Sequence record: MH383160
Reading direction: 5' to 3' (one strand)
Origin: Escherichia phage UB
Length of the DNA: 64,000 bases
The notes under the pieces were generated by a model. The model was given only the letters and a program-made list of their open reading frames with translations, was not told where the DNA came from and did no database searches. Made by a program: the position numbers and the translations under genes. Shown in pieces: positions 21,540 through 64,000 of this stretch (position 1 is the first letter of the stretch; every line of letters starts with the position of its first letter).

Positions 21540-21544
21540 TACCA

Positions 21545-26045: not shown

Positions 26046-26153
26046 ATCATTGTACCTTATCTTAAAATTGAATAGGTAAACATGTTAACACTATTCAAAT
26101 GGAGTGTCAACATTGATCTTCATTCTGTGAATATTAAATTTCATATTATTCTC

Positions 26154-28796: not shown

Positions 28797-29002
28797 TTTC
28801 TCAGTACTGATTCTTTAAGTTCATTGATGTAGTCCTCAACGAATTGTTCTTGTAGGTTTGTTCCGAGATATAACAGTACTCTTAAATCTGCTCTAAGTAC
28901 TTCTTTGTCATCTTCATCTATATCAGACAGTGTTATGTTTAAGAATTTACTTGAATTCTCTACAAGTAATATTACTTCTTCACCTTCTCTTAAAATTTTC
29001 AT
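28787..29002 (-). CDS. LGT-QE family small protein (hypothetical)
   Basis: ORF track 71 aa; core YLGTNLQEQ. Confidence 0.55.
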   Translation of the reverse strand: MKILREGEEVILLVENSSKFLNITLSDIDEDDKEVLRADLRVLLYLGTNLQEQFVEDYINELKESVLRKCK

Positions 29003-29208
29003 AATCTTAGTGCTTTCCTCGACAGTAGGTACAGGTAACGTTCAGTGCATTGTTCTTGATAGTTTGTTCCTAATAAATGAACTAAATGTTGTTCAGCTAT
29101 AGAAAGCTGCTTGTCTTCATAACAAGCGTATCGTTGTTTCCTATGGTATTCTTTATTGATAACATCAAGGATGATAACACCGTATTCGTCATCTGTCAAG
29201 TGTTTCAT
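28999..29208 (-). CDS. LGT-QE family small protein (hypothetical)
   Basis: ORF track 69 aa; core LLGTNYQEQ. Confidence 0.55.
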   Translation of the reverse strand: MKHLTDDEYGVIILDVINKEYHRKQRYACYEDKQLSIAEQHLVHLLGTNYQEQCTERYLYLLSRKALRL

Positions 29209-29446
29209 GCTTTTTTCTTTTTCTTATATGTTTAGTTAAAAGGTATATTAGTTTTCTGATGTATTCTTCCTGATAGTTTGTTCCTAAGAGTGCAAGAAGT
29301 TTTGCTTCAACTAAAGCTAATTGACGTTCTTCGAATGTGTGTTCCAGTATGTACTTGGGGTTTGATTTTTTAGCGTAAGCACTATTAGTCTTCATTACAA
29401 TCTTATGATATTCATTAGCTGTTAGGATTTTTAAATACTTGATCAT
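29189..29446 (-). CDS. LGT-QE family small protein (hypothetical)
   Basis: ORF track 85 aa; core LLGTNYQEE. Confidence 0.55.
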   Translation of the reverse strand: MIKYLKILTANEYHKIVMKTNSAYAKKSNPKYILEHTFEERQLALVEAKLLALLGTNYQEEYIRKLIYLLTKHIRKRKKHETLDR

Positions 29447-29666
29447 GTATCTTTTCCTTTATAGAGAATTTAAGATATCGAAGCATACTTTCAATGTAAT
29501 ACTCTTGTCTGTCAGTGCCAAGAAAGTACATGAGTTGAATGTATAAAACTTCTGCACTCCTTTCCGCTGGAGACTTGTTTGTGTCGTTTGGAAGTTGATT
29601 TGTATGTTTTCTTGATTTAATTAGTCGTTCTTTTAACTCATCGTCTGTTAAGTATTTCATTTTCAT
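29415..29666 (-). CDS. LGT-QE family small protein (hypothetical)
   Basis: ORF track 83 aa; core PAERSAEVL...FLGTDRQEY. Confidence 0.55.
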   Translation of the reverse strand: MKMKYLTDDELKERLIKSRKHTNQLPNDTNKSPAERSAEVLYIQLMYFLGTDRQEYYIESMLRYLKFSIKEKIHDQVFKNPNS

Positions 29667-29892
29667 TTACTTTTTCCTTAATAGTAATTTTAAGATATCT
29701 AATCATACGTGCAACATATTCCTCTTGTCTATCAGTTCCCAGAAGATATGGTAGTGATTGGAATAATACTTCTGCACTCCTTTCTGCTGGGGTTTGGTTT
29801 AGGTCAATTGGACGTTTATTGGTATATCTCTTGGCACGAACTAATCTCTCGACGTATTCATTATAGGTTAAGTATATCATTTCATTTTGCAT
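29638..29892 (-). CDS. LGT-QE family small protein (hypothetical)
   Basis: ORF track 84 aa; core LLGTDRQEE. Confidence 0.55.
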   Translation of the reverse strand: MQNEMIYLTYNEYVERLVRAKRYTNKRPIDLNQTPAERSAEVLFQSLPYLLGTDRQEEYVARMIRYLKITIKEKVNENEILNRR

Positions 29893-30118
29893 TTACTTTT
29901 TCCTTAATAGTAATTTTGAGATATTTAATTATACGTTCAATGTGATACTCTTGCCTATCAGTTCCAAGAAGGTATGGTAATCTTTGGAATAAAACTTCCG
30001 CACTCCTTTCTGCTGGGGTTTGATTTGTGTTGTGAGGAAGTTTATTTGTAAGTCTTTTGGATTTATCTAGTCTTTCTGTTAACTCATCATGTGTTAAGTA
30101 TATCATTTCATTTTGCAT
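29882..30118 (-). CDS. LGT-QE family small protein (hypothetical)
   Basis: ORF track 78 aa; core LLGTDRQEY. Confidence 0.55.
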   Translation of the reverse strand: MQNEMIYLTHDELTERLDKSKRLTNKLPHNTNQTPAERSAEVLFQRLPYLLGTDRQEYHIERIIKYLKITIKEKVNAK

Positions 30119-30345
30119 TTAATGTTCCTTACGTAAATTGTCTGGATTAAACAATCAATCCAAGTTTGAATATATTGGTTTTGATACTGTGTGCCTAAGA
30201 GACTCTGCATTTTAAACTCTGCTTCAAGTTCATATCTCTTTTCTATAGAAAAGCTCAAATGACCATATTCTTTATCGTATCTTCTCAGTGCTTCCCCAAT
30301 TCTATTAAATCTTTCTGCTAATCTGATGTTATTCACAATATTCAT
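30103..30345 (-). CDS. LGT-QE family small protein (hypothetical)
   Basis: ORF track 80 aa; core LLGTQYQNQ. Confidence 0.55.
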   Translation of the reverse strand: MNIVNNIRLAERFNRIGEALRRYDKEYGHLSFSIEKRYELEAEFKMQSLLGTQYQNQYIQTWIDCLIQTIYVRNIKCKMK

Positions 30346-30632
30346 CGATCAGTATACCTCAGTGGTTGGGTCATTTGATAAAAGTACAGCTTACCTTTGA
30401 TTTCCAGTAGTAACTCCGCGATTAAGCGATTTACTTCTGTATCTTGATAGTTTGTTCCTAAGAATACACCCATCTTTAACTCACGCATCATAATCATTTT
30501 CTTACTGTGTTGGATTTCTGGGTTGTGATAAATTGTATTACGTTTGTGCGTAATTTTTGTCATACGCTCGGTATATTCATCTTTACTTAAATTGATCATT
30601 TGCATGTTAATTACCCTTACATTTATTTTCAA
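30342..30632 (-). CDS. LGT-QE family small protein (hypothetical)
   Basis: ORF track 96 aa; core FLGTNYQDT. Confidence 0.55.
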   Translation of the reverse strand: MKINVRVINMQMINLSKDEYTERMTKITHKRNTIYHNPEIQHSKKMIMMRELKMGVFLGTNYQDTEVNRLIAELLLEIKGKLYFYQMTQPLRYTDR

Positions 30633-30837
30633 TACTATTCATGAGTTCTATAAGATAGTTTTCTACCTTACCTTCCTGATAGTTAGTCCCTAGGAAGTTG
30701 CACAACACGGCTTCTATGATTTTGATTTTCCTGATATCAGGCTTCAATCTTTTGTTATTGAATATTTGAATCCTTATATCTCTGGATGCATTTAAACGTT
30801 TTTGATATTCATGGTAAGTTAAATGAATCATTTTCAT
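30607..30837 (-). CDS. LGT-QE family small protein (hypothetical)
   Basis: ORF track 76 aa; core FLGTNYQEG. Confidence 0.55.
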   Translation of the reverse strand: MKMIHLTYHEYQKRLNASRDIRIQIFNNKRLKPDIRKIKIIEAVLCNFLGTNYQEGKVENYLIELMNSIENKCKGN

Positions 30838-31052
30838 TTACGTTTAACCTCTCGCTGGAGGGCATCAATTAACATCAGTACAGCATTCTCTTGATAGTTT
30901 GTTCCTAAGACTGAAAGCATCTTTATCTCATTTACTAAAATCAACTTCTTTGAGGGTTCAATAATGTGACTATCATAAACGGCCTTACGTGCTGGATAAG
31001 TTTTCGCCAGTATAACATAAAATTCGTCTTTACTTAAATTAATCATTTGCAT
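30834..31052 (-). CDS. LGT-QE family small protein (hypothetical)
   Basis: ORF track 72 aa; core VLGTNYQEN. Confidence 0.55.
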   Translation of the reverse strand: MQMINLSKDEFYVILAKTYPARKAVYDSHIIEPSKKLILVNEIKMLSVLGTNYQENAVLMLIDALQREVKRK

Positions 31053-31261
31053 TTACTTTTAACCTCTTTCTGTAGAGCGTCAATCCATAGATCTACATAC
31101 ATTTGTTGATAGTTTGTGCCTAAGAGTGCACCTACATAGAGTTCAGTTACTAGTGCGTGCTTAAGGTTAGCTTGGATGCTCTTATCGCTTGATATCATTC
31201 TCCTTCTGCTTCCACATGTTTTCAGGAGTCTGATGTATTCAAAGCCTTGTAAATTTCTCAT
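31043..31261 (-). CDS. LGT-QE family small protein (hypothetical)
   Basis: ORF track 72 aa; core LLGTNYQQM. Confidence 0.55.
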   Translation of the reverse strand: MRNLQGFEYIRLLKTCGSRRRMISSDKSIQANLKHALVTELYVGALLGTNYQQMYVDLWIDALQKEVKSKCK

Positions 31262-31473
31262 ATTTTGGATACCACCTTGTTACGTAAGGAACTTAATAAT
31301 ACGTCAGTGTAGATGTTTTGATAGTTTGTCCCTACGAATACACCCAACTTCATTTCAGCTATTATAACACATTTGTCCTCTTGTGCAATAGATTTGTTTA
31401 ACACAATACTATACACTTTTGATTTGATAGTTTGTAACCTCCAATGATACTGATACTCATTAAGGATTATCAT
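31258..31473 (-). CDS. LGT-QE family small protein (hypothetical)
   Basis: ORF track 71 aa; core FVGTNYQNI. Confidence 0.55.
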   Translation of the reverse strand: MIILNEYQYHWRLQTIKSKVYSIVLNKSIAQEDKCVIIAEMKLGVFVGTNYQNIYTDVLLSSLRNKVVSKI

Positions 31474-31708
31474 TCTCTTTCCTCCAGATTTCGGTTCTCA
31501 TGTGTTGGCAGTGTGCTTCGATGAACATATCTATTGATTTGGCAATTGCGTTTTTATCAGTGCCTGTCATCAGTACAAGCATCTCGGCCTCACAGTGAAG
31601 TAAACGCATGATATCATAGGGTAATATTTCAGATACAGTGTCATAGTGTTTCTGTGCCAGTGTCTGCAATAGTTTACAATACATTTTGTGATTTAGTCTT
31701 TGTCGCAT
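31460..31708 (-). CDS. LGT-QE family small protein, divergent (hypothetical)
   Basis: ORF track 82 aa; core LMTGTDKNAI. Confidence 0.5.
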   Translation of the reverse strand: MRQRLNHKMYCKLLQTLAQKHYDTVSEILPYDIMRLLHCEAEMLVLMTGTDKNAIAKSIDMFIEAHCQHMRTEIWRKENDNP

Positions 31709-31965
31709 TGTTTATTCCATTCTTTTTTGGCCTTGATGGTTTTATATTGGATTTGGTTTCTTAATGCTGATAAGTATCGTTGAATGAACAGATCTTGATA
31801 GTTTGTTCCAATGAATTTCATAAGATAAAGTTCACCGTTGATAACATCCACTTCAGGTGCACCATATAAGGCATTGTTTTTTCTAAGGGCATGGATTAAA
31901 GAGAATAGGGCAGTTTGATACTCAACTCCTGATAAAGTCTTCATGTTTTGTGAGCAAATAATCAT
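31693..31965 (-). CDS. LGT-QE family small protein (hypothetical)
   Basis: ORF track 90 aa; core FIGTNYQDL. Confidence 0.55.
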   Translation of the reverse strand: MIICSQNMKTLSGVEYQTALFSLIHALRKNNALYGAPEVDVINGELYLMKFIGTNYQDLFIQRYLSALRNQIQYKTIKAKKEWNKQCDKD

Positions 31966-32179
31966 CTAGTTTATCCTGTATAACATTCGTTAATTGTTCG
32001 ATATATTCTGTGCAAAACTTATCTTGATATTGAGTCCCCATAAAGTACAGCAACCATAGCTCATTAACTTTAGCTCGCATTTGGTTCCATGTAAGGCTGG
32101 GGTCACCGTAGACTATCCTTGTGATGGGGGTTAGTTTACGAATTATAGTTTCAAATTCATCATCAGTTAAGTGTTTCAT
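31922..32179 (-). CDS. LGT-QE family small protein (hypothetical)
   Basis: ORF track 85 aa; core FMGTQYQDK. Confidence 0.55.
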   Translation of the reverse strand: MKHLTDDEFETIIRKLTPITRIVYGDPSLTWNQMRAKVNELWLLYFMGTQYQDKFCTEYIEQLTNVIQDKLDDYLLTKHEDFIRS

Positions 32180-32394
32180 TTACATTTGTCCCTTATTAGA
32201 TCAGTGAGGGCAACTATGTGTGCAACAACATACTCTTCCTGAAAGTTCGTCCCCAGTACAGCCATCATGCGTATATCGGTGGTGTTTATCCTGTGTTCCC
32301 TTACACATAAACCTTCTGTGTGAGGAAGTGTAAAATATTTGTTTATTGCAGCAACGATAATTTTATTCTTCTCGGAGTTACTTAAATGTTTCAT
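32176..32394 (-). CDS. LGT-QE family small protein (hypothetical)
   Basis: ORF track 72 aa; core VLGTNFQEE. Confidence 0.55.
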   Translation of the reverse strand: MKHLSNSEKNKIIVAAINKYFTLPHTEGLCVREHRINTTDIRMMAVLGTNFQEEYVVAHIVALTDLIRDKCK

Positions 32395-32603
32395 AGTTTA
32401 CTCCTGATATAATTCTGAAGTGCAATTAAGTATTCCCCTACATAATACACCTGAAAGTCTGTATCAAGGAATGCACCCATAAGTAAATCTTTTTCTAATA
32501 CCCTTGATAAGTTAAGGTCTGCATTTGAAAGGTATATAAGTAAGATTTCACCCTGTGCGGAATTGAAACGTTTCTTATATTCTTCTGATGTTAAAAAAAT
32601 CAT
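32391..32603 (-). CDS. LGT-QE family small protein (hypothetical)
   Basis: ORF track 70 aa; core FLDTDFQVY. Confidence 0.5.
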   Translation of the reverse strand: MIFLTSEEYKKRFNSAQGEILLIYLSNADLNLSRVLEKDLLMGAFLDTDFQVYYVGEYLIALQNYIRSKL

Positions 32604-32815
32604 AATTTGCTCCTGATATATTTCTCAAGAGATGACAAATACTTTTCCTCATAATACTTCTGATAGTCTGTTCCTAAGAATGCACCCAATAGTATATCAT
32701 TTTCCAATACCTCGGCTAAGTTTAAATCAGAAGTCTCTTCGTATATTATGAGGATTTCAAGTTGTCTGGCAGCGATGCGTTCAGTATATTGATATGAGTT
32801 TTCTATAATAATCAT
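32600..32815 (-). CDS. LGT-QE family small protein (hypothetical)
   Basis: ORF track 71 aa; core FLGTDYQKY. Confidence 0.55.
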   Translation of the reverse strand: MIIIENSYQYTERIAARQLEILIIYEETSDLNLAEVLENDILLGAFLGTDYQKYYEEKYLSSLEKYIRSKL

Positions 32816-33021
32816 AGTTTACTCTTAATATCTTCTATTAAAAATCGAATCCATTCTTCAACATAATCTTCCTGATGGTTTGTGTTCAGTACAGCCAACA
32901 TGCGGATCTCTGCTCTTGCAACTTCAATTTCAGTTTTAGGAAGGTCTTTGCTGATATCCACCATTAAGTCCATGTATTTCAAGATAAGACCGTATGATTG
33001 GGTTCGTGTTATAGTTTTCAT
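32812..33021 (-). CDS. LGT-QE family small protein (hypothetical)
   Basis: ORF track 69 aa; core VLNTNHQED. Confidence 0.5.
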   Translation of the reverse strand: MKTITRTQSYGLILKYMDLMVDISKDLPKTEIEVARAEIRMLAVLNTNHQEDYVEEWIRFLIEDIKSKL

Positions 33022-33218
33022 TGTTTCCTCGTGGACAATATTTTATTTTTCAATGTATCCATATATTGAATCACCCATCTTTCCTGATAGTTAGTTCCCA
33101 AAGTAATCAAAAGGTATAACTCCATTCGTTCTACGTGTGTGTCTGTATTATAAATCTTTGTGAAGTTTTTACGTAACAGTGATTGATATTCTTCTTTATT
33201 TAAAATACGCATTTTCAT
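33018..33218 (-). CDS. LGT-QE family small protein (hypothetical)
   Basis: ORF track 66 aa; core TLGTNYQER. Confidence 0.55.
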   Translation of the reverse strand: MKMRILNKEEYQSLLRKNFTKIYNTDTHVERMELYLLITLGTNYQERWVIQYMDTLKNKILSTRKQ

Positions 33219-33412
33219 AGTTTACTCGTTATATCTTCAATTAAATACCAAATCCAATCGTTGACATACCTTTCCTGAAAGTTAGTTCCAATGAATAGTG
33301 CCATAATTAATTCACGCTTATAGGCAATACCACGGTCATGGGACTTATACATTATCATAGCCATGTTATTGATAAGTCTTTCGTGGTGCTGTTCTTTAGT
33401 TAAAATACGCAT
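33215..33412 (-). CDS. LGT-QE family small protein (hypothetical)
   Basis: ORF track 65 aa; core FIGTNFQER; first gene of the array. Confidence 0.55.
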   Translation of the reverse strand: MRILTKEQHHERLINNMAMIMYKSHDRGIAYKRELIMALFIGTNFQERYVNDWIWYLIEDITSKL

Positions 33413-33661
33413 AGGGACTCCATTAAAAATAATATCAATCCTATAATATACGATTCGTATAAAAAATCAATAACATTTTATTCGTAATACCCCTTTATCG
33501 AAGTCGCTAAGGTTACCCGCCCTTTAGCCCCCTACGCATTTTGCCATAGTCCAATCCCTTTTATTTCAAAAAAGTCAAGGGATTACCTATGCATTTTTTT
33601 AACGCATAATTTTAAAAACGCCTTGACTTTTTTCTGAATCAGTACTAGATCCCTTTACGCA
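33413..33661 (-). promoter_or_regulatory. non-coding control region upstream of the LGT-QE array
   Basis: 249-bp gap with 13-bp inverted repeat AAAAAAGTCAAGG / CCTTGACTTTTTT (33567..33633), four CTACGCATT-like repeats and a candidate TTGATT-N16-TATTAT promoter. Confidence 0.3.
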
Positions 33662-54858: not shown

Positions 54859-55041
54859 TTAGTACCTGAATATAAGTAGGATAGTGTTATATAGCTGGTC
54901 ATAACTACTACTATTTTCTATACTTCGTTCTATGCAGTTATTGAATCCAAGTACTGCCAAATCGTTATCCAGAGGGACTTTATATCTGGCGTAGTGTTCA
55001 AAAATGCTGGGGAGAAATTGTTTGTAGTATTCTTTGTGCAT
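54859..55041 (-). CDS. MHKEYY family small protein (hypothetical)
   Basis: ORF track 60 aa; MHKEYYKQF...YNTILLIFRY. Confidence 0.55.
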   Translation of the reverse strand: MHKEYYKQFLPSIFEHYARYKVPLDNDLAVLGFNNCIERSIENSSSYDQLYNTILLIFRY

Positions 55042-55051
55042 ATTGTTCTCT

Positions 55052-55240
55052 TTAGTACTTGAATATTAGGGCGAGGATGTAATACAGTTTATATGTTCTA
55101 TCCTCGTACATTAGGGTGTACTTAGTACATTCTTGGAACATTGTTTTTGCGTCATCTTTTATGCCCAATGTAACGTTTGGTATAAGGCTTTGTAGATACA
55201 TTGGGAGTTTCTCTATGTAGTATTCTTTATAGTTGTTCAT
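55052..55240 (-). CDS. MHKEYY family small protein (hypothetical)
   Basis: ORF track 62 aa; MNNYKEYYIEKLPMYL...YYILALIFKY. Confidence 0.55.
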   Translation of the reverse strand: MNNYKEYYIEKLPMYLQSLIPNVTLGIKDDAKTMFQECTKYTLMYEDRTYKLYYILALIFKY

Positions 55241-55248
55241 ATTATGTG

Positions 55249-55428
55249 TTATTTCGTGAAAACAAGGGTTAGTACTGCATAGTACAAGTCATACGTATCT
55301 TTAGGGTTAATAGCACCTTTAATACATTCTTTCATTAATTCATTATAGATAATTTTAGTACTGAAGGTATTGGATGTTACTATATCGGAATTAAGGTACG
55401 ACAAGTAGAATTCTTTATGTTTGTGCAT
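55249..55428 (-). CDS. MHKEYY family small protein (hypothetical)
   Basis: 59-aa ORF MHKHKEFYLSYL...YYAVLTLVFTK; below ORF-track cutoff. Confidence 0.45.
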   Translation of the reverse strand: MHKHKEFYLSYLNSDIVTSNTFSTKIIYNELMKECIKGAINPKDTYDLYYAVLTLVFTK

Positions 55429-55429
55429 A

Positions 55430-55615
55430 TTAGTACTTATATATTAGTAAAAGGATGTGATACAGTACTCGATTATAGTCTTCAATATATATCGAGGATT
55501 TAGTGCACTGAATGAAGTAGTCTTTTTCGTAGTTTTTTTCTATACCCAATGGTTCTGTTGGTAGAAGGTGTTGGAGATACATTGGGAGTTTCTCTATGTA
55601 GTATTCTTTATGCAT
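55430..55615 (-). CDS. MHKEYY family small protein (hypothetical)
   Basis: ORF track ORF trimmed to ATG 55615 (MHKEYYIEKLPMYL). Confidence 0.55.
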   Translation of the reverse strand: MHKEYYIEKLPMYLQHLLPTEPLGIEKNYEKDYFIQCTKSSIYIEDYNRVLYHILLLIYKY

Positions 55616-56273
55616 AGTTTGTAATATACGTAATGAGGTGATGCATTTTCTTATTAGTACTGATAATTTCCTGTACATGTTTTGTCAGATTGTACGCGTT
55701 TTTATAGAGTACTGGATTATCGATTACAGTACTGTACATGAATAGTTCTTCTTCCTGTAGTTCTTTGTGTTCTAGTTCTTTGAGGAATTGCAGTACTGTA
55801 TCAGTTTCGTCAGTAGGTTGTGCTTGCCAGAAGTGCATTTTCTCGTGTACTTTTTCTGATCCTACGTAGTATCCATCACCGATTTGGAATTGAGCACTAC
55901 TGATATCATTTGGTGTATTACAATTCACGAATAGGTATACGTTTCCATAAGAGATATTCAAAACACACGGGATACCATTTAACTGTATAGTTAAGCCGAA
56001 ATATACGTTTTTTATATTTTTAGTACTAGTATTAGTACTCAATACTTTTAAATCAGTATTATAGATATTCGCATAATCAATAGAGATATTATTTTTCTTC
56101 AAGTACGATTTGAGGTTCTTAGATACGAGAACTGTACTGAATTTATCCTTTTTATTTCGTTTCTTTAGTACATTAGGGTGATAAGTATATGAAGATGTAA
56201 CTGATTCTGCTTGAATACTGTTGAGGTACTTAAAGTGCTTAAGGTATTGTTTACTGTGTGCATTAAGTTTCAT
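55608..56273 (-). CDS. FQ-motif family protein (hypothetical), outlier copy inside MHKEYY array
   Basis: ORF track 221 aa; motif EEELFMYSTVID. Confidence 0.6.
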   Translation of the reverse strand: MKLNAHSKQYLKHFKYLNSIQAESVTSSYTYHPNVLKKRNKKDKFSTVLVSKNLKSYLKKNNISIDYANIYNTDLKVLSTNTSTKNIKNVYFGLTIQLNGIPCVLNISYGNVYLFVNCNTPNDISSAQFQIGDGYYVGSEKVHEKMHFWQAQPTDETDTVLQFLKELEHKELQEEELFMYSTVIDNPVLYKNAYNLTKHVQEIISTNKKMHHLITYITNYA

Positions 56274-56283
56274 TTGGTTTCCT

Positions 56284-56463
56284 TTATATAGATGCCAGGG
56301 CGAGGATTTCCCTGTAGGGATTATCTTGTGTTAGTACAGAATAAATGCAGCTATTGAGATTAATATTTTTAGTACTTTTTGTTCCTAGTTTGTAGTAATC
56401 AACGAATGTGTCGTACATGAAACGGTCTTTTATGGTTATACGTTCTATATAGAATTGTTGCAT
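56284..56463 (-). CDS. MHKEYY family small protein, divergent (hypothetical)
   Basis: 59-aa ORF MQQFYIERITIKDRF...; below ORF-track cutoff. Confidence 0.4.
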   Translation of the reverse strand: MQQFYIERITIKDRFMYDTFVDYYKLGTKSTKNINLNSCIYSVLTQDNPYREILALASI

Positions 56464-56471
56464 AGTATTCC

Positions 56472-56654
56472 TTATATAGAGATTAGTTTCATTACTTCTC
56501 TGTATGTGTACTTTTCGTTTTGTGCATCTCTTGTGACGACATATAGGAAGGTGTGTTTATCTTTTTTGTTCCCGCAATTGTAGAAAATATTGAACTTATT
56601 GAAGTTGAATCTTTCGGCGTGTTGTAGTTTAGTTAAATAGAATTCTATGTTCAT
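56472..56654 (-). CDS. MHKEYY family small protein, divergent (hypothetical)
   Basis: ORF track 60 aa; MNIEFYLTKL...KYTYREVMKLISI. Confidence 0.5.
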   Translation of the reverse strand: MNIEFYLTKLQHAERFNFNKFNIFYNCGNKKDKHTFLYVVTRDAQNEKYTYREVMKLISI

Positions 56655-56662
56655 TTTATTCC

Positions 56663-56848
56663 TTACATTTCAATAAGTTTAAGTACTGCTCGGTACGTGT
56701 ACTTAGTTGTCAGTGCTTCTTTAATAGAAACACAGAAGTAATGTTTTTTGTCTCTTATACTGCCGCGTTTGTAGTACCACACATGGGAGTTGTGACTGTA
56801 CTTGTCTCTGTCGGATAGTTGTTGGTAGTAGTAGCTTATATGATTCAT
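56663..56848 (-). CDS. MHKEYY family small protein, divergent (hypothetical)
   Basis: ORF track 61 aa; ...KYTYRAVLKLIEM. Confidence 0.5.
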   Translation of the reverse strand: MNHISYYYQQLSDRDKYSHNSHVWYYKRGSIRDKKHYFCVSIKEALTTKYTYRAVLKLIEM

Positions 56849-57057
56849 TATAATGTAATTAGCCTTACTATATTAAAGTACTCGGTTCCTGGTGTACCTT
56901 GTAGTATATTACGCACGACATTTTTTTGGTGCTGGATGATTGCTGAAGGTGCGGTTCTTTTTAGTTTTTTTAAAGTACTGAATTCTTGTTTAAGTATGAA
57001 CTGTACATCTTTAGGGAGAATATCTATGTAGTACTGATGAATGTTTGTAGTTTTCAT
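56848..57057 (-). CDS. MHKEYY family small protein, divergent (hypothetical)
   Basis: ORF track 69 aa; MKTTNIHQYYIDILP... Confidence 0.5.
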   Translation of the reverse strand: MKTTNIHQYYIDILPKDVQFILKQEFSTLKKLKRTAPSAIIQHQKNVVRNILQGTPGTEYFNIVRLITL

Positions 57058-57067
57058 ATAGCACCTT

Positions 57068-57262
57068 TTAGAACTTAAAGATGAGGTTCAGGATAGAGCG
57101 GTACTTAGTTTCAGGGAACTGATGTTCTATTGCATAACGTGTCGCCATCCTGAAATCGTAATTGTAATATAGATTATCCTTTCTCATAGGTGGTGCTAAA
57201 GAGAATGATAGCTGGTCTTGCTTGTGTAGTTTACTACCATAGAAATCTTTATGATTATTCAT
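57068..57262 (-). CDS. MHKEYY family small protein (hypothetical)
   Basis: ORF track 64 aa; MNNHKDFY...LNLIFKF. Confidence 0.55.
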   Translation of the reverse strand: MNNHKDFYGSKLHKQDQLSFSLAPPMRKDNLYYNYDFRMATRYAIEHQFPETKYRSILNLIFKF

Positions 57263-57464
57263 AGAAGTAGATTAGTCCTATTAAACCTGAGTACATAATA
57301 TTTTTGTTATTGCATTCGATTGCTTCTAGAGTACTACGTATACAATTATTAAAGCAATCTCTACCGAATTGAGTATTGGTACTTACAGGTGATACACTCC
57401 TTAGAAACAATTGTTCTTCGTTGCTAAGGTATTTGGTGTAGAATTCTTTATGTTCAGTATTCAT
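57255..57464 (-). CDS. MHKEYY family small protein (hypothetical)
   Basis: ORF track 69 aa; MNTEHKEFYTKYLS... Confidence 0.55.
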   Translation of the reverse strand: MNTEHKEFYTKYLSNEEQLFLRSVSPVSTNTQFGRDCFNNCIRSTLEAIECNNKNIMYSGLIGLIYFYE

Positions 57465-57465
57465 A

Positions 57466-57669
57466 TTAGTACTCGATTAATAGGGTAAGGATGTAATAGT
57501 ATTGCATACATTCTACCCCTTGTAAAGCATTTCTTATGTTATTATTCCTGTACGAGTTCAGGAGTTTAGGGCTACGTTTGAGGTGTTTGAAATTAGTTTG
57601 TGTATGCAGTAGGCTTTCACGTAGACCTTTTGTTGGTAGTGCATCGATGTAGTACTGTTCGATATTCAT
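57466..57669 (-). CDS. MHKEYY family small protein, divergent (hypothetical)
   Basis: ORF track 67 aa; MNIEQYYIDALP...YYYILTLLIEY. Confidence 0.5.
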   Translation of the reverse strand: MNIEQYYIDALPTKGLRESLLHTQTNFKHLKRSPKLLNSYRNNNIRNALQGVECMQYYYILTLLIEY

Positions 57670-57893
57670 ATAGATAGCAGTACTAAGATTTTTGATAATT
57701 GTTTATTGCTATCCCCGCAGATGTTGCTGTGTAAAATACTCACAATGAGGGTATCAATTGCATTGTTCATCATAAGGGTGCATCCTGGACTATTATAATT
57801 TTTTAGCTCAATTAGCCACGAACTATCCGAGAGAAATTCCCCGTACTCTAGTTCATTTAGAGTATTGAGGTAGTACTTAAGAGTATTTGTCAT
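57666..57893 (-). CDS. MHKEYY family small protein, divergent (hypothetical)
   Basis: ORF track 75 aa; first gene of array; AAGGAG RBS. Confidence 0.5.
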   Translation of the reverse strand: MTNTLKYYLNTLNELEYGEFLSDSSWLIELKNYNSPGCTLMMNNAIDTLIVSILHSNICGDSNKQLSKILVLLSI

Positions 57894-57908
57894 GTGTAGT
57901 TCTCCTTA

Positions 57909-57937
57909 TATTCCTTCTATAGTACACCAGTACTGAA
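57909..57937 (-). promoter_or_regulatory. sigma70-like promoter for the MHKEYY array
   Basis: minus strand TTGACA-N17-TACTAT in the divergent intergenic region. Confidence 0.45.
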
Positions 57938-57964
57938 AGGATGTCAAGGGTTTTCTTTATGGGG

Positions 57965-57979
57965 TAAATATGATATAAT
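57965..57979 (+). promoter_or_regulatory. -10-only promoter-like element (candidate late-type promoter)
   Basis: TAAATATGATATAAT followed by GAATAAGGAGG RBS; no -35 match. Confidence 0.35.
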
Positions 57980-57995
57980 GAATAAGGAGGGAAAT

Positions 57996-59132
57996 ATGTT
58001 ACCTTTTGCAAGAATGATGAATTATGGGAACGTAGCACCAGATAAACTAAAAATACGTGATATTGTTGCAGGTGCTAATTCATTATTACTAATAACAGAG
58101 GATAATGAATTATGGGTGCGTGGTAATAATGCGTATGGCAAATTAGGTATAGGAACTGATACTATAGTGAATGTAACCGAGTGGACTAAAGTTAGAGATG
58201 ATGTTAAGTTTGCTTGTGCTAGTAATTTAGTATGCGTTGTATTAACTGTAGATAATAAAATTTTATACTGTGGTGATGAATGGTTTGAATCTGGTGGTTC
58301 GACAAGTTCTAAAGTTGTTACATGGAAAGATGTTACGACACAATTTAGTGCAGTGAATCTAAGCACAGTTCGTGAAATGAAAATAACTTATTATTGTGTA
58401 GGATTACTTACAAATGATAATAGATTATATGCTAAAGGATATGATAATAACCAATCATTTGGTGGTTCAACAAGCAAAGTTAATGCTGTATTAGTTGCGT
58501 CAAATGTTTCAAAATTCTACACTTCTCTATCTGGTACTATATATTCTAGTACTACTGGTGGTTACTATCGCTGTGGTATAAGCAATACTGGAGCATTGGG
58601 TACTAGCACAAATTTAACTTCTTATAATTTGTACTCTGCTCCCGAATTTGCATCCGAATGTGCAGTTGGTATGTCAACATTAAACTCTGGTATATTATAT
58701 TATGATACTAATGGTATCACTAGATATGTTATAGCAGGTCAAAATAGAAATTATCAACTAGGTAATTCTTCTTCAAATACCACAAACGTATATTCGTATA
58801 CAGAATTAACCGGATATAGAGGCAGGTTTAGGGATTTGTGGAGTGATATGAATAACTCTGTTCTTTCTTTTGCTATAAGCACAGATGGCAATACTTTATA
58901 TTATGCTGGTACTAACAATACACTATCTTCTGGTGATCCTGGTGTTGAATATTCATCTGCATTCAAAGAAGTACCACACGGGTTTAATGATATAACAAAG
59001 GCGGCATCGTTAGCATATCTATCTATAGTGCAAGATTCAACGGGATGGTATTATTCTGGAAATGCAACTACGTTATATGGTTTGCCATCGAGTGGTGAAT
59101 TTATACCATTACCATTACCAACATTAATTTAA
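57996..59132 (+). CDS. RCC1-like repeat (beta-propeller) protein, MLPFARM paralog family
   Basis: ORF trimmed to ATG 57996 after AAGGAGG; repeats GNNAYGKLGIG, GYDNNQSFGG, GQNRNYQLGN. Confidence 0.6.
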   Translation: MLPFARMMNYGNVAPDKLKIRDIVAGANSLLLITEDNELWVRGNNAYGKLGIGTDTIVNVTEWTKVRDDVKFACASNLVCVVLTVDNKILYCGDEWFESGGSTSSKVVTWKDVTTQFSAVNLSTVREMKITYYCVGLLTNDNRLYAKGYDNNQSFGGSTSKVNAVLVASNVSKFYTSLSGTIYSSTTGGYYRCGISNTGALGTSTNLTSYNLYSAPEFASECAVGMSTLNSGILYYDTNGITRYVIAGQNRNYQLGNSSSNTTNVYSYTELTGYRGRFRDLWSDMNNSVLSFAISTDGNTLYYAGTNNTLSSGDPGVEYSSAFKEVPHGFNDITKAASLAYLSIVQDSTGWYYSGNATTLYGLPSSGEFIPLPLPTLI

Positions 59133-59138
59133 ATATAG

Positions 59139-59169
59139 GCCAGTACTTGATACTGGCTTTCTTTTTTTT
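59139..59169 (+). terminator. intrinsic terminator
   Basis: GCCAGTA-CTTGA-TACTGGC then T-rich run. Confidence 0.6.
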
Positions 59170-59172
59170 GTA

Positions 59173-59188
59173 TTAAATATAGTATAAT
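59173..59188 (+). promoter_or_regulatory. -10-only promoter-like element
   Basis: conserved TTAAATATAGTATAAT immediately before GAATAAGGAGG. Confidence 0.35.
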
Positions 59189-59204
59189 GAATAAGGAGGG
59201 ATTT

Positions 59205-60314
59205 ATGTTACCTTTTGGAAGAATGGTTAAGTACGGAAATATTGTACCTGGTCCTAAAAATATAATTAAAGTTGGTGCTTCTACACAAGGTCAATTCTTA
59301 TTGACTGATTCACATGATTTATATTACATAGGTAGAAATCAAGGTGGTGAATCTGGAAATGGTAATACCAACACGGTATCTTCATGGATATTAGTAAGTG
59401 CAGATGTTTCTAATTTTTTCGTGGGTGATCGTACACTTGTTATTATTAAAAATGATAATACTATATGGACATCAGGTCAAACGTACTGGTTCTCATCTTC
59501 TACAACTACTTCTTACAGTACTGTATTAGTTGAAAGGACTAGTTGGTTTACCACGGCTATACCAGTAAGTGAGATTGCTAATATTGTATGTACAAATGGT
59601 TTAATATTTGTACTTAGCACTAATTCAGTACTCTATGGTGCAGGAGATAATGGATATCGTGGTTCTTTGGGTATTGGTTCATCATCAATTTATACATTAA
59701 CTCAATGTGCTACGAACGTTCGTAAAGTAATGACAAATGCGAATGATAGTATGTATCTTACATTAGATAATAAGCTATATAGTTCTGGATGGAATAGTAG
59801 TGGGCAGCATGGTACGGGGAACCAAACACAAATTAATACTTGGGGATTACGTAGTTCTGGTGTAATCGATGCAGCAATTGGTGGTAATGCATTAAATTAC
59901 TATAATGGTACATCATATTTCGTATGTGGTCAAACTCCAAACTTTCTTAGTTCAGGTACGACTACATTCCGTGCAGTTCCTGTAAGTACTTTGCCTAATA
60001 GTTCTCCGTTGTTTATGACGAATTCACCTGCATTAAATACTGCTACACAAATGGTAATTACTAGTACATATCAGAAGGGTGTTGGGGCGAACCGTGGTTT
60101 GGGATTAAACAATTCTCAAACTGGTGCTATATATAGTGCTACCAATTTACAATTACCCGTTGAAGTTAGTGAGATTAGGGATGTTCTTTTTAGTGATGGT
60201 TTGACATCGATATTAACCAAAAATGGAGATGTGTATAGTACTGGATCGTATTACGCCATTCCAGGTGCAATCGAGGATGTTGCAGTCTTTACTAAAATTG
60301 ATTTACCAAAATAA
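59205..60314 (+). CDS. RCC1-like repeat protein, MLPFGRM paralog family
   Basis: ORF trimmed to ATG 59205; repeats GDNGYRGSLGIG, GWNSSGQHGTG. Confidence 0.6.
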   Translation: MLPFGRMVKYGNIVPGPKNIIKVGASTQGQFLLTDSHDLYYIGRNQGGESGNGNTNTVSSWILVSADVSNFFVGDRTLVIIKNDNTIWTSGQTYWFSSSTTTSYSTVLVERTSWFTTAIPVSEIANIVCTNGLIFVLSTNSVLYGAGDNGYRGSLGIGSSSIYTLTQCATNVRKVMTNANDSMYLTLDNKLYSSGWNSSGQHGTGNQTQINTWGLRSSGVIDAAIGGNALNYYNGTSYFVCGQTPNFLSSGTTTFRAVPVSTLPNSSPLFMTNSPALNTATQMVITSTYQKGVGANRGLGLNNSQTGAIYSATNLQLPVEVSEIRDVLFSDGLTSILTKNGDVYSTGSYYAIPGAIEDVAVFTKIDLPK

Positions 60315-60320
60315 CATAAT

Positions 60321-60350
60321 GCCAGTACTTGATACTGGCTTTTATTTTTT
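60321..60350 (+). terminator. intrinsic terminator
   Basis: GCCAGTA-CTTGA-TACTGGC then TTTTATTTTTT. Confidence 0.6.
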
Positions 60351-60352
60351 GA

Positions 60353-60368
60353 TTAAATATAGTATAAT
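60353..60368 (+). promoter_or_regulatory. -10-only promoter-like element
   Basis: TTAAATATAGTATAAT before RBS. Confidence 0.35.
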
Positions 60369-60384
60369 GAATAAAGGAGGAATT

Positions 60385-61572
60385 ATGTTACCTTTTGCAA
60401 GAATGGTTAAGTACGGGAATAAAGTCATTCCATATGTTCCCAATTTTACTAAATTAGTCACCCCAGCAGTTGGTTATTCATTTACATGCACAATGCTGCT
60501 GGATGTAAATGGATCAGTGTGGGCTATGGGTCTTCAGAATGGTGGAATTTTTGGGTTAGGGAATACTACACAGGTTACTGAATGGACAAAAATATATAGC
60601 AATGTTAAAGATTTTTGGTGCAGTACAGGGAATGGGTTTTGTCTAATACGAACAAATGATGATAGATTCTTTTATAGTGGTTTAGATAAATGGCTAGGTA
60701 ATAATACAACAAATACTGTAACAACATTCACTGAATGTACGAGTTATTTTACACAATTTGGTATTTCAAAAATCAAAGAGATATATGTAGGTCTTGATTA
60801 TGCTTTGATTTTAGGTACTGATAATAGTTTATATTTGTTAGGTGATAATAAAAATTCAAAGTTTGGTTTAAACACTGCATCATATTTTAATAAATTTACA
60901 TTTTTAGTCGATAATGTTAAAAAATTCTGTTCATCCATCACACCCTCTAACTGGATTATTAAACTAGATAATACAATATGGCGTACTGGGACAACATCTC
61001 ATGGAACGTTGGGAAATGGAGTTCAAAACACATATATATTTCCTTGGGTTCAATATAAGGGCACACCTGTTACCGAAGCTATAGACGTTTTTTGTAGTGC
61101 GAGTTATATTGGTATTATAACTAAAGGTACACCAGAATCATGTCCTATGTATACAATGGGCTATCAAGCTGATGGTCAGTTGGGTAATAATACTACAGCA
61201 GGGGGTTATAAATTAACGCCAACGTTATCGAAAACCGTTCCAGATGATAGTGAATTCATTCGAATTGAAAACATCTCATCCCGTGGCCTGGTATATTATA
61301 GCTCTGGTAAAATTTATAGTACTGGTTATAATAACAATGGTCAATTGGCAAATAACAGTACAATTAATTCTGGTTCATTTGTTGAAGCAATTTTACCTGA
61401 TGGTGTTAATTTTAAGAAAAGTGAATCACTTGTAGCTGGGAACGATGCAACGTTGTATATGTACATTAATAATAAATTATACTACGCGGGGAAATCCCCT
61501 GATAATATTTCAGCAAGTAGTTCATCTGTCATGAAAGAGTTCCCACTTCCAACAATCAATGCCAGTACTTGA
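60385..61572 (+). CDS. RCC1-like repeat protein, MLPFARM paralog family
   Basis: ORF-track ORF 60223..61572 trimmed to ATG 60385 after AAAGGAGG; repeats GLQNGGIFGLGN, GYQADGQLGNN, GYNNNGQLANN. Confidence 0.6.
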   Translation: MLPFARMVKYGNKVIPYVPNFTKLVTPAVGYSFTCTMLLDVNGSVWAMGLQNGGIFGLGNTTQVTEWTKIYSNVKDFWCSTGNGFCLIRTNDDRFFYSGLDKWLGNNTTNTVTTFTECTSYFTQFGISKIKEIYVGLDYALILGTDNSLYLLGDNKNSKFGLNTASYFNKFTFLVDNVKKFCSSITPSNWIIKLDNTIWRTGTTSHGTLGNGVQNTYIFPWVQYKGTPVTEAIDVFCSASYIGIITKGTPESCPMYTMGYQADGQLGNNTTAGGYKLTPTLSKTVPDDSEFIRIENISSRGLVYYSSGKIYSTGYNNNGQLANNSTINSGSFVEAILPDGVNFKKSESLVAGNDATLYMYINNKLYYAGKSPDNISASSSSVMKEFPLPTINAST

Positions 61573-61590
61573 TACTGGTATTCTTATTTG
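61561..61590 (+). terminator. intrinsic terminator
   Basis: CCAGTA-CTTGA-TACTGG then T-rich run; overlaps stop codon. Confidence 0.55.
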
Positions 61591-61592
61591 TA

Positions 61593-61608
61593 TTAAATAT
61601 AGTATAAT
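61593..61608 (+). promoter_or_regulatory. -10-only promoter-like element
   Basis: TTAAATATAGTATAAT before RBS. Confidence 0.35.
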
Positions 61609-61624
61609 GAATAAAGGAGGAATT

Positions 61625-62812
61625 ATGTTACCTTTTGCAAGAATGATGAATTATGGGAATATTGTGCCTGTACCACTACAAATTAAGAAAATAATACCAA
61701 CTGATACTGATGTTGTTGTACTTTATACTGATGGTCAACTATACGCACGAGGAAATAATGCTTTTGGGAAGTTTGGAAGAGGCAACAACACTGCATTAAG
61801 AACATGGACATTAATTAGAGAAAACGTTAACGATTTCTGGATCACACAAGGAACTTTGTTAGTTCAAGATAATGACTTAAATTATTACTATTGTGGATAT
61901 GGTGATCATATTGGTTTACCAAGTAGTACTACTACGTTTTTAAGTTATAACCAATATATTGAAAATTTGTTCACGCAAAGTTCAAGTACTTCAATTAAAC
62001 AGATGTATGCAGGTACTACGTGGTTTACTTTCTTAATGGATAATAATACAATATGGAGTACTGGTTGGAGTGGGGGTAAACAATTCGCTGATGGTACGGG
62101 TAGTACTCAACAAATAACAGATGGATCATTTGTAAAAGCTGTCACGCCTGATGTTGATATTGCACAAATACAGTCAACAAATAACTGTGTAATGTTTTTT
62201 GATACACAAAATAATTTATATATTGGTGGTGGTACGTCAGGTATAAGTACTAGTACTACATGGACTTCATATAATGAATATACTTTATATAAACCAAGTA
62301 CAACATACACAAAAACGTTACAATACACTGGATGCTCAAGTGGTGCAGTCAGTGCTTTGGTTGAGAATCCAAGTACTGGTGCACGTCAGTTTCTAGTTGG
62401 TGGTTTAGCGAATAATGGTGCATGGGGCAACAATACCACAACCAGTTCAGCACTTGCTGTATTAGGGAGCAATAGTACGACATTACCACCCGGTACTTTG
62501 TATTCAATTCATACTGGATACCCAACACAATCTAGTATACTAGTTACGAGTACTGGTGTATATGCAACTGGTTTAAATGCGAGTAGTTATGCTGGCTCTT
62601 TGGGTGTAGGTTCTAATGTTACTATTGGTAAATTTACTGCATGTCCAATGCCTACACAAATAACATATTCTATGTATGATAAAATAAAAATATATAGAGG
62701 TTCATATCGTACATTTCTAACTGATATGAAAAATATATATTCAACCGGAACTTATGATGATGGTGGTCCTAGTACAACTAGATATGTACTAGATACACCC
62801 CGTCAATTATAA
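61625..62812 (+). CDS. RCC1-like repeat protein, MLPFARM paralog family
   Basis: ORF-track ORF trimmed to ATG 61625; repeat GNNAFGKFGRGN. Confidence 0.6.
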   Translation: MLPFARMMNYGNIVPVPLQIKKIIPTDTDVVVLYTDGQLYARGNNAFGKFGRGNNTALRTWTLIRENVNDFWITQGTLLVQDNDLNYYYCGYGDHIGLPSSTTTFLSYNQYIENLFTQSSSTSIKQMYAGTTWFTFLMDNNTIWSTGWSGGKQFADGTGSTQQITDGSFVKAVTPDVDIAQIQSTNNCVMFFDTQNNLYIGGGTSGISTSTTWTSYNEYTLYKPSTTYTKTLQYTGCSSGAVSALVENPSTGARQFLVGGLANNGAWGNNTTTSSALAVLGSNSTTLPPGTLYSIHTGYPTQSSILVTSTGVYATGLNASSYAGSLGVGSNVTIGKFTACPMPTQITYSMYDKIKIYRGSYRTFLTDMKNIYSTGTYDDGGPSTTRYVLDTPRQL

Positions 62813-62818: not shown

Positions 62819-62849
62819 AGCCAGTACTCAGTACTGGCTTTCTTATTTG
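62819..62849 (+). terminator. intrinsic terminator
   Basis: 9-bp stem AGCCAGTAC-TCA-GTACTGGCT then T-rich run. Confidence 0.6.
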
Positions 62850-62851
62850 TA

Positions 62852-62867
62852 TTAAATATAGTATAAT
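62852..62867 (+). promoter_or_regulatory. -10-only promoter-like element
   Basis: TTAAATATAGTATAAT before RBS. Confidence 0.35.
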
Positions 62868-62883
62868 GAATAAAGGAGGAAGT

Positions 62884-63621
62884 ATGTTACCTTTTGGAAG
62901 AATGGTAAAGTACGGGAATAAAATTGAATATAAGCCAGATGGTGAACAATTAATCACGACAATAGGAACAACACAATTTACAGTTCCTGCTGGCGTTACC
63001 GAAATATCAGTATGTGTTATTTCGCCGGGTGGTCAACGTGGTGCTGGTGGCGGCTTATCGTGGCGTAATAATATTCCGGTTACTAGTGGTGAGTACTTAA
63101 GTGTTTCTCTTACACATCCCAACACTACTACACCAGTTGAAAACGGTTTATATCGTGGAACTGAAAAACTATGTGTTAGCTTCACTGGTGAATATAGGGT
63201 TGGTGGACTAGGTGGGAAAGCTGCTAACGCTATTAATGATGGTGGTGGTAATGGGGGCAACGCTGGTGTAAGTGGTGGTGCAGTCATTGGTGGTGGTGCT
63301 GGTGGCTACACTGGTAAAGGTGGTAACGGAGATGCAATCACTGGTGAAAATGGTGCTGGCGGCGGCGGTGGTGGTGGTGCATTCTATAATACCTCGTTCA
63401 TTGGTACGGGTGGTGGTACTGGTATCATTGTTCAAGGTGCTAATGGTATTGGCGGTAGATACGATGGTTCATATAATGGTGGTGCTGGTAGTGGTGGTGC
63501 TGGTAAGATGTATGGTGGTGGTGGTAGTATATGGGATAATTTTTCTTATACGGCTGCTGGTGGTGGTGCTGTGCGAATAATATGGGGACGTGGGAGATAT
63601 TATCCTAACAATTCAGTCTAA
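62884..63621 (+). CDS. MLPFGRM-family protein with glycine-rich C-terminal region
   Basis: ORF trimmed to ATG 62884; shared N-terminus MLPFGRMVKYGN; C-terminal 150 aa about half Gly (GGGAGGYTGKGGNGD..., GGGGGGGAF...). Confidence 0.55.
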   Translation: MLPFGRMVKYGNKIEYKPDGEQLITTIGTTQFTVPAGVTEISVCVISPGGQRGAGGGLSWRNNIPVTSGEYLSVSLTHPNTTTPVENGLYRGTEKLCVSFTGEYRVGGLGGKAANAINDGGGNGGNAGVSGGAVIGGGAGGYTGKGGNGDAITGENGAGGGGGGGAFYNTSFIGTGGGTGIIVQGANGIGGRYDGSYNGGAGSGGAGKMYGGGGSIWDNFSYTAAGGGAVRIIWGRGRYYPNNSV

Positions 63622-63628
63622 AATATAG

Positions 63629-63658
63629 GCCAGTACTTGATACTGGCTTTCTTATTTG
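63629..63658 (+). terminator. intrinsic terminator
   Basis: GCCAGTA-CTTGA-TACTGGC then T-rich run. Confidence 0.6.
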
Positions 63659-63660
63659 TA

Positions 63661-63676
63661 TTAAATATAGTATAAT
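63661..63676 (+). promoter_or_regulatory. -10-only promoter-like element
   Basis: TTAAATATAGTATAAT before RBS. Confidence 0.35.
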
Positions 63677-63693
63677 GAATAAGGAGGGGAATT

Positions 63694-64000
63694 ATGTTAC
63701 CTTTTGCAAGAATGGTTAAGTACGGGAATATAGCACCAGTTCCAGTAGTTCCTACAATAAAAGATTTTAAGATTGGCTTTTCACATGAAGTGTTATTGGA
63801 CAGTGCAGGTGATGCATGGGGTATTGGATACAATACAGATGGGCAGTTAGGCTTTTTGGATGCAAATACCAATTCACTAGGTGTGTGGTCTAAGATATAT
63901 ACTGATGTTCGATTAATTGGAGTTACTGCTAGATATACAGTGGTAGTTACTAATAATAATAGAATCCTTTACGCAGGAAATAACTTAATTTCTAGTACTA
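63694..64000 (+). CDS. RCC1-like repeat protein, MLPFARM paralog family (partial, continues beyond window end)
   Basis: ATG 63694 after AAGGAGGG; MLPFARMVKYGN...GYNTDGQLGF; no stop in window so absent from ORF track. Confidence 0.5.
   Translation, partial: MLPFARMVKYGNIAPVPVVPTIKDFKIGFSHEVLLDSAGDAWGIGYNTDGQLGFLDANTNSLGVWSKIYTDVRLIGVTARYTVVVTNNNRILYAGNNLISST

Follow-up and report, generated by a model that had tools for sequence, protein, structure and literature searches.

How is transcription started in both directions from a short stretch of DNA that lies between two divergently oriented blocks of phage genes, and are the two directions served by the same kind of promoter? This question is raised by a window of 64,000 nucleotides from Escherichia phage UB (sequence record MH383160), which is the whole stretch of DNA that was analysed. 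Up to position 57893 nearly every gene is on the minus strand; the genes from 57996 onwards form a row on the plus strand that reaches the end of the window. These two blocks are separated by a gap of 102 bp (57894–57995). The G+C content of the window is 34%, 13% of it is non-coding, and Rfam and tRNA scans over its whole length gave no matches. By megablast of 55000–60500 and blastn of 57780–58120, the source of the window is an Asteriusvirus-type jumbo coliphage. Only Asteriusvirus jumbo coliphages were matched (36 records, including G17, Sharanji, slurp01, PBECO4, 121Q and phAPEC6); the best matches had ∼94% identity, rising to as much as 97% across the gap itself.

GenBank records for the genus have terminators annotated and no promoters, and the G17 record lists terminators only. 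A literature search found no promoter work on Asteriusvirus, and no transcript, start-site or timing data for any Asteriusvirus were found in the searchable literature; the one related RNA-seq data set comes from PA5oct, a distant phage of Pseudomonas (PMC7318152). The initial annotation of the region 57909–57990 had proposed a sigma-70-like promoter for a minus-strand gene array, a -10-type element alone for the first plus-strand gene, and a probable boundary between early and late transcription. All the elements that it had named, on both strands, were found where it had placed them. The gap is best described as an ordinary but clean switch point, with two predicted promoters of different classes standing back-to-back without overlap, their cores separated by 17 bp.

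The leftward promoter and its strand-biased class

On the minus strand, a -35 hexamer TTGACA (57947..57942) that matches the consensus at all six positions is followed by a 17-nt spacer (57941..57925) and a -10 hexamer TACTAT (57924..57919), which matches at four of six positions and keeps A-11 and T-7. The -35 hexamer was invariant and the length of the spacer unchanged in nine Asteriusvirus relatives. The -10 hexamer in these relatives reads TACTAT, TACAAT or TAGAAT, that is, always TAnnAT with variation confined to the two tolerant middle positions. The same -10 with its flanking letters (gTACTATa) is also present at a promoter-like site at 38178. Immediately upstream of the -35 lies an A-tract, AAAGAAAAC (57950..57958), which by comparison with the other early promoters of the window is probably UP-element-like. 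The spacer contains the palindrome CAGTACTG (57928..57935, both strands), which is not conserved in JNE01 or Turkey5. The promoter ends 25 nt from the ATG at 57893, with a Shine-Dalgarno (SD) sequence AGGAG (57906..57902) in between, and transcription would start near 57912 to give a leader of ∼19 nt.

A loose sigma-70 scan of the window showed no enrichment (64 sites against 64.1 in shuffled sequence) and, as these counts are equal, it carries no evidence. It was replaced by a strict composite (TTGACA-N16–18-TAnnnT) and by counts of strand bias. The minus strand has 48 copies of TTGACA and the plus strand 13; a TAnnnT follows 16–18 nt later in 29 of the 48 cases and in none of the 13. Nineteen of these 29 composites fall in the non-coding 13% of the window. 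About 14 perfect (12/12) promoters of the form TTGACA-N16-TATAAT are present on the minus strand, concentrated at 35–53 kb, and compared with these the -10 of the leftward promoter is weaker. When the early-type promoters of the window were aligned, an upstream A-tract was shared by them and an AGTACT palindrome in the spacer was very frequent. By its -35, its 17-nt spacer, its TAnnnT -10, its placement before a gene and its membership of a non-random class, the site at 57947..57919 is, as judged from sequence, a genuine sigma-70 promoter, and the initial description of a sigma-70-like TTGACA-N17-TACTAT element is borne out by both the 29:0 strand bias of the class and the conservation in the relatives.

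The perfect promoters at 35–53 kb on the minus strand are densely packed (for example at 35291, 36817, 39666, 39936, 41245, 43980 and 51148). Downstream of at least seven of them, between about +10 and +35, lie the conserved sequence 'tttacatcaag' and a hairpin rich in G+C, such as GGGGAGAATAGTTCTCCCC, which together make a repeated cassette of promoter plus 5′-stem-loop. The leftward promoter of the gap is without such a 5′ hairpin.

The first gene of the leftward array (57666–57893, minus strand, ATG at 57893) encodes 75 amino acids. Behind it come ∼18 closely spaced genes, each of roughly 60 aa, down to 53891. Members of the array match phrog_11711, a family of unknown function. The first gene, on the other hand, did not score against this model of the MHKEYY family. 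In the interval from 53.9 to 57.9 kb the minus strand has no terminator-like site, and the promoter probably heads an operon of ∼4 kb and ∼18 genes. The array is likely to consist of early, host-takeover genes. The small minus-strand proteins gp541c–548c of phAPEC6 are absent from the virion mass-spectrometry table of that phage. The sigma-70 class of the window stands before small non-virion genes, as in the predicted early regions of the related phages CBB and GAP32 (PMC5259590).

The rightward promoter and its probable TAAATA core

As no plus-strand gene lies upstream, the rightward promoter must be located in or near the gap. The start codon of the first gene of the row, which encodes an RCC1-like protein, is the ATG at 57996 (MLPFARM...), and the equivalent start is annotated in G17; the mechanical ORF start at 57978 falls within the promoter/SD block. 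A strong SD sequence, AAGGAGG (57984–57990), precedes this ATG. Further upstream, the segment TAAATATGATATAAT (57965–57979, plus strand) holds two candidate hexamers, TAAATA (57965–57970) and TATAAT (57974..57979), with a TG at 57971–57972. We found no -35 element upstream of the plus-strand elements, the best candidates being TTTTCT or TTTCTT (2–3 of 6 positions).

The functional core of this promoter is most likely TAAATA and not TATAAT. At this element TAAATATGA was invariant across nine relatives; in Ecwhy_1 the site matches TATAAATA, the canonical T4 late octamer, in full. TATAAT was broken in three of the nine (GATGAT in ph0011, TATAAC in JNE01 and Turkey5), with TAAATA kept. The initial annotation was therefore right that there is only a -10-type element without a -35, but it had taken TATAAT as the key hexamer, and the conserved and depleted hexamer is TAAATA instead. 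The octamer at 57963..57970, GGTAAATA, is probably a T4-type late promoter in variant form and agrees with TATAAATA at six of eight positions; it has GG at -13/-12, and its TAAATA core is exact. With TAAATA taken as -11 to -6, the start falls at ∼57976, and TATAAT therefore lies within the initiation region. We consider that TATAAT is most likely the A/T-rich initiation region of a late promoter and not a sigma-70 -10, with a probable start at ∼57975–57978 and a leader of ∼20 nt.

Counts over the window point in the same direction. Among all 4096 hexamers, none is as strongly depleted as TAAATA (28 copies against 144 expected, z about -10), and 6 of these 28 copies stand at the same position before six plus-strand genes. 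Because the word is so strongly depleted, the six fixed copies are conspicuous and unlikely to be incidental. They belong to a 26-nt block, TAAATAT(AG/GA)TATAATGAATAAGGAGG, which has six copies at ≤3 mismatches against none expected, each directly before a plus-strand gene (6/6) and with TAAATA in a fixed position. The other five copies read ATTAAATA as their octamer where the first has GGTAAATA. Canonical TATAAATA is absent from the window (0 occurrences against 15.6 expected). This absence at first appeared to speak against a late promoter; given the TAAATA statistics and the structural region of phAPEC6 (see below), it is rather evidence of strong avoidance.

Other assignments of the rightward element fit less well. 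TATAAT or TGnTATAAT as the main functional element is at odds with the three relatives that break it. An extended -10 of the sigma-70 class would need TGnTATAAT, which occurs only in the first copy of the window and is broken in ph0011, JNE01 and Turkey5; copies 2–6 are without the TG and read TAGTATAAT. The middle-like class of CBB and GAP32 would need a TGAAACG box, which is absent, 57951–57957 reading TTTTCTT. We also observed one TAAATA in the early block (29880–29927, minus strand), the only one there with an SD-like sequence and an ATG suitably placed (∼37 nt); it is a possible solitary late promoter within the early region.

Cassette organisation of the RCC1-like genes

The first RCC1-like gene with its SD occupies 57984..59132 on the plus strand and encodes 378 amino acids from 57996. 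Its product scored above cut-off with Pfam RCC1_2 and RCC1, falls in phrog_4219 and is 96% identical to G17_00070; the RCC1-like plus-strand proteins are classed as beta-propellers by these sequence assignments. Terminator-like hairpins are enriched in the window (18 against 6.5 expected), and there is one after each plus-strand gene. Copies 2–6 of the 26-nt block are preceded by a hairpin terminator (GCCAGTACTTGATACTGGC and a T-run), while copy 1 is without a hairpin. With a terminator in front of every cassette, each would have to be transcribed from a promoter of its own.

At the second junction (59137..59204), the hairpin GCCAGTACTTGATACTGGC with its T-run is followed by TTAAATATAGTATAATGAATAAGGAGG, before the gene at 59205. 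The next four junctions each consist of a hairpin, a TTAAATA late core and an SD sequence: 60321..60384 (core at 60354, gene at 60385), 61558..61624 (core at 61594, gene at 61625), 62819..62883 (core at 62853, Gly-rich gene at 62884) and 63627..63693 (core at 63662, gene at 63694, which is cut by the end of the window). Over positions -31 to -1, copies 2–6 share 94% identity with one another and 87% with copy 1, well in excess of the values for the gene bodies.

Some features of these junctions are of separate interest. A block of ∼110 bp, made up of the terminator, the late promoter, the SD and the first ∼15 codons, is 85–94% identical between cassettes (59137–59250, 60321–60430, 61558–61670, 62819–62930 and 63627–63740), and the gene bodies are at the alignment baseline. 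Within the first ∼15 codons, the cassettes encode a common N-terminus, MLPF(A/G)RM(V/M)(K/N)YGN, that could be a shared virion anchor. The Gly-rich protein of 245 aa (62884–63621; phrog_4474, no Pfam match) is not RCC1-like, yet it shares both the upstream cassette and the MLPFGRMVKYGN N-terminus with the RCC1-like genes. Which RCC1-like genes are present, and in what order, varies among the window phage, G17 and phAPEC6, and the conserved cassette junctions could be recombination points for the swapping of virion-protein modules. Mechanical ORF starts (57978, 59187, 60223, 61559 and 62866) extend upstream into the promoter/SD block, giving overlong ORFs such as MNKEGNM... and, from 60223, one of 449 aa; the ATG of MLPF is the conserved, true start in each case, at 57996, 59205, 60385, 61625, 62884 and 63694.

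Late-type motifs and a putative late sigma factor in phAPEC6

We examined a 50-kb segment of phAPEC6 that carries head and baseplate genes. All seven occurrences of TATAAATA and 19 of 33 occurrences of TAAATA in this segment were ≤70 nt upstream of genes on the same strand, and TAAATA was depleted here as well (33 against 93 expected). Genes behind these motifs include those for the major capsid protein, the scaffold, the protease, the portal operon and the baseplate, with products detected by mass spectrometry. In a MAFFT alignment, the elements of the window aligned with the (n)ATAAATA motifs before the major capsid, scaffold and baseplate wedge genes, and also with those upstream of gp228c, gp231c, gp238, gp245 and gp247. 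Most phAPEC6 genes behind an aligned (n)ATAAATA motif encode proteins found in the virion by mass spectrometry. Variants at -12 also occur in this phage, CTAAATA at gp228c (a virion protein) and GTAAATA at gp247. Tails of the form TAAATA-nnn(n)-(T)ATA recur in many late motifs of phAPEC6 and CBB, and EJP2 also has TAAATA-nnn-TATAAT.

The positional counterpart of the first RCC1-like gene in phAPEC6, gp549, shares the GTAAATA block, and gp551 shares the TTAAATA block. Both proteins were found in purified phAPEC6 virions by mass spectrometry, as were gp003, 005, 006, 007, 009 and 010. The first RCC1-like protein of the window has ∼26% identity to gp549 beyond the first 12 residues, and its virion association is therefore at the family level only.

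A candidate for the factor that reads such promoters is also present in the genus. In phAPEC6, gene gp237c carries the annotation of a late sigma factor. Its product matched phrog_12791 (E 3e-154) and, at E 8e-18, also phrog_234 ('late sigma transcription factor'). A phmmer search of this factor against the PDB gave no match and no solved homologue of gp55 structure, and Pfam gave none; the PHROG matches and the annotation of the GenBank record are the basis on which we regard gp237c as a putative relative of T4 gp55. The gp55-like gene adjoins homologues of genes 46 and 47. It was located in a relative ∼93% identical to the window, and lies outside the window.

The gap between gp237c and gp238 of phAPEC6 (∼130 bp; 25958–26088 of the 50-kb segment) is a second divergent control region of mixed class. 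The late-sigma gene is preceded by GGTGCTATAAT, which is of the extended -10 type and has a TGGGACA box resembling the TGGAACG of CBB; the virion-protein operon on the opposite side is preceded by TATAAATA. This region resembles the gap of the window in being mixed, with a TGnTATAAT-type promoter one way and TATAAATA the other way. It differs in that its non-late promoter is extended -10/middle-like and serves the sigma gene, and it lies outside the window. With this second case, divergent control regions of mixed class are seen to recur in the genus.

Proposed early and late transcription from the gap and alternative explanations

The explanation that we favour, at a probability of roughly two in three, is that the gap combines a leftward early promoter for the host sigma-70 with a rightward T4-type late promoter that drives the row of RCC1-like virion genes. 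At the onset of infection, the leftward promoter would be read by the host sigma-70 holoenzyme from a start near 57912, and the transcript would be a polycistronic block of ∼18 small genes. The rightward promoter would stay silent until a late sigma factor of the phage replaces sigma-70, and would then be read from near 57976 by the host core RNA polymerase carrying the gp55-like factor. Each later gene of the array would repeat the unit of terminator hairpin, TTAAATA late core, SD and MLPF(A/G)RM N-terminus, so that the array would consist of independent late monocistronic units. The footprints of both polymerases would overlap upstream of the cores, and a separation in time may thus also avoid interference. 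Both the assignments of sigma factors and the temporal classes (early leftward, late rightward) are inferred from sequence comparison. The proposed boundary between early, host-polymerase-dependent and late, phage-factor-dependent transcription gains comparative support from the sigma-70 class, the late core, the gp55-like sigma factor and the virion proteome.

The rightward element could instead be a host sigma-70 promoter without a -35, of the extended -10 or -10-only type and active early or in the middle period, with TAAATA being incidental. A perfect TATAAT in six of six cassettes of the window, the TG at 57971–57972, the likeness of the -10 part to 'TATGATATAAT' of the predicted TGAAACG-N13-TGnTATAAT class of CBB, and the placing of TATAAT 3 nt after TAAATA in EJP2 too would all fit. 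We consider it unlikely, however, since three relatives lose T-7 (TATAAC in JNE01 and Turkey5) or the entire hexamer (GATGAT in ph0011) and TAAATA is invariably kept. Moreover, five of six cassettes have no TG and none has a -35 (best TTTCTT), the position of the upstream TGAAACG box reads TTTTCTT, and a start 7 nt past TATAAT would land in the SD sequence. The avoidance of TAAATA genome-wide likewise argues that its six fixed copies are not incidental. The same loss of a usable TATAAT in three relatives weighs against a promoter of dual use, in which TAAATA would serve the late sigma factor and TATAAT sigma-70, giving the virion 'hair' genes a low early or middle expression that is boosted late. 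Such an arrangement would account for the perfect or near-perfect state of the two motifs throughout the six window copies, for their fixed 3-nt offset, which EJP2 shows too, and for the 94% (copies 2–6) and 87% (copy 1) identity of the -31 to -1 block. This conservation could, however, come equally from constraints on the initiation region and leader or from gene conversion between cassettes, and we regard dual use as a rather improbable arrangement.

It is also conceivable that there are no promoters of either kind here, the plus-strand block being a mere by-product of duplication or gene conversion in an array transcribed from elsewhere, and the minus-strand TTGACA/TACTAT having arisen by chance. 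The cassettes are clearly paralogous, and the loose promoter scan did no better than shuffled sequence. Yet no plus-strand gene or other candidate promoter lies upstream of the first cassette, the terminator before each cassette calls for a promoter of its own, and copy 1, which has no hairpin and differs in its flanks, still has TAAATA...SD. Both elements are conserved genus-wide with substitutions that are compatible with function, and the strict sigma-70 composite has its strand bias of 29:0. This explanation is therefore very hard to sustain.

The early-leftward and late-rightward assignment provides a concrete transcription map for Asteriusvirus, in which consensus sigma-70 promoters would mark the early block and (n)TAAATA the late units. 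If the RCC1-like genes are independently transcribed late virion genes, this agrees with the presence of such proteins in the particles of phAPEC6 and speaks against an early role in 'DNA condensation'.

The AGTACT palindrome

The more surprising observation was an incidental one. AGTACT, often within CAGTACTG, is the most over-represented hexamer in the window, with 262 sites against ∼19–39 expected (roughly 13-fold). Non-coding DNA has one site per 101 bp and coding DNA one per 313 bp, where it occurs in all three frames; sites at 57929–57934, 59142, 62823 and 62830 are examples. Sixteen of the 29 minus-strand promoter-like sites have AGTACT between the -35 and -10, abutting one of them, compared to 9.7% of random windows. 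It also forms the stems of the terminators of the RCC1 cassettes. The palindrome is enriched in G17 and phAPEC6 as well, including the structural region (1.8 per kb). There is no AGTACT at all in 17300–25000 and 28900–33640, and the flanks of these stretches have 3–8 sites in every 2 kb. GTAC too is scarce in the second stretch (9 in 4.7 kb), where no ORF reaches 100 aa. Both may be segments of different origin or function. The idea that AGTACT encodes the MHKEYY N-terminus was dropped, as the positions of the sites are not consistently aligned with gene starts. A literature search for CAGTACTG returned only primer noise, and no account of AGTACT was found.

A more speculative proposal, which we consider improbable, has two parts. 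In the one part, CAGTACTG would be the operator of a phage factor; such a phage-encoded DNA-binding protein could shut early promoters off or mark phage DNA at the early-to-late switch. In the other, which is separate, the GTAAATA/TTAAATA-nnn-TATAAT block would be a distinct late subclass, which could have its own timing for virion 'hair' proteins. If CAGTACTG were an operator, the gap would be a regulated switch and more than two passive promoters.

Comparison with the promoters of T4, CBB and GAP32

Bacterial and T4 early sigma-70 promoters have the form TTGACA-N17-TATAAT with an UP element. The leftward promoter resembles them in its -35, its 17-nt spacer, its TAnnnT, its A-tract and its SD–ATG leader of ∼19 nt, and departs from them in its -10, which has only 4/6 matches (TACTAT).

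T4 late promoters have TATAAATA at -13 to -6 and are recognised by gp55, acting together with gp33 and the clamp gp45 (PMC1524935). Positions -13 and -12 vary among T4-like phages, Aeromonas phage Aeh1 using CTAAATA (PMC1524935). The rightward promoter is like those of T4 in having a short A/T-rich -10-only motif with a TAAATA core and no -35; as in T4, the motif stands 16–56 nt before late/virion genes and the rest of the genome avoids the word. The genus likewise has a gp55-like sigma gene adjoining gp46/47 homologues. The differences are that the octamer in the window is GGTAAATA or ATTAAATA and not TATAAATA, and that the sigma factor of the genus (279 aa) is very divergent from T4 gp55, with no phmmer match to solved structures. 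Homologues of the co-activators gp33 and gp45 were not found in the relative CBB (PMC5259590).

For the Rak2-like phages CBB and GAP32, three promoter classes have been predicted: an RpoD-like early class with an UP-like element, TGAAACG-N13-TGnTATAAT, and a late class (A/C/G)TAAATA-N4-ATA (PMC5259590). CBB belongs to a different genus, and its promoter classes are likewise predictions. The leftward promoter, with its upstream A-tract, fits the RpoD-like class, and in both cases early promoters cluster before short hypothetical genes. The match with the late class of CBB is near-literal (Porf_201 CTAAATATGATATA compared to GTAAATATGATATA in the window). In contrast to CBB, for which it is not described, the window has the AGTACT palindrome in its early-promoter spacers, and the middle-type TGAAACG box is absent from the gap. 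The promoter logic of the gap appears to be that of T4, which has already been predicted for CBB and GAP32 and seems not to be annotated for Asteriusvirus; as the logic is that of T4, the knowledge of phage transcription is unchanged by it.
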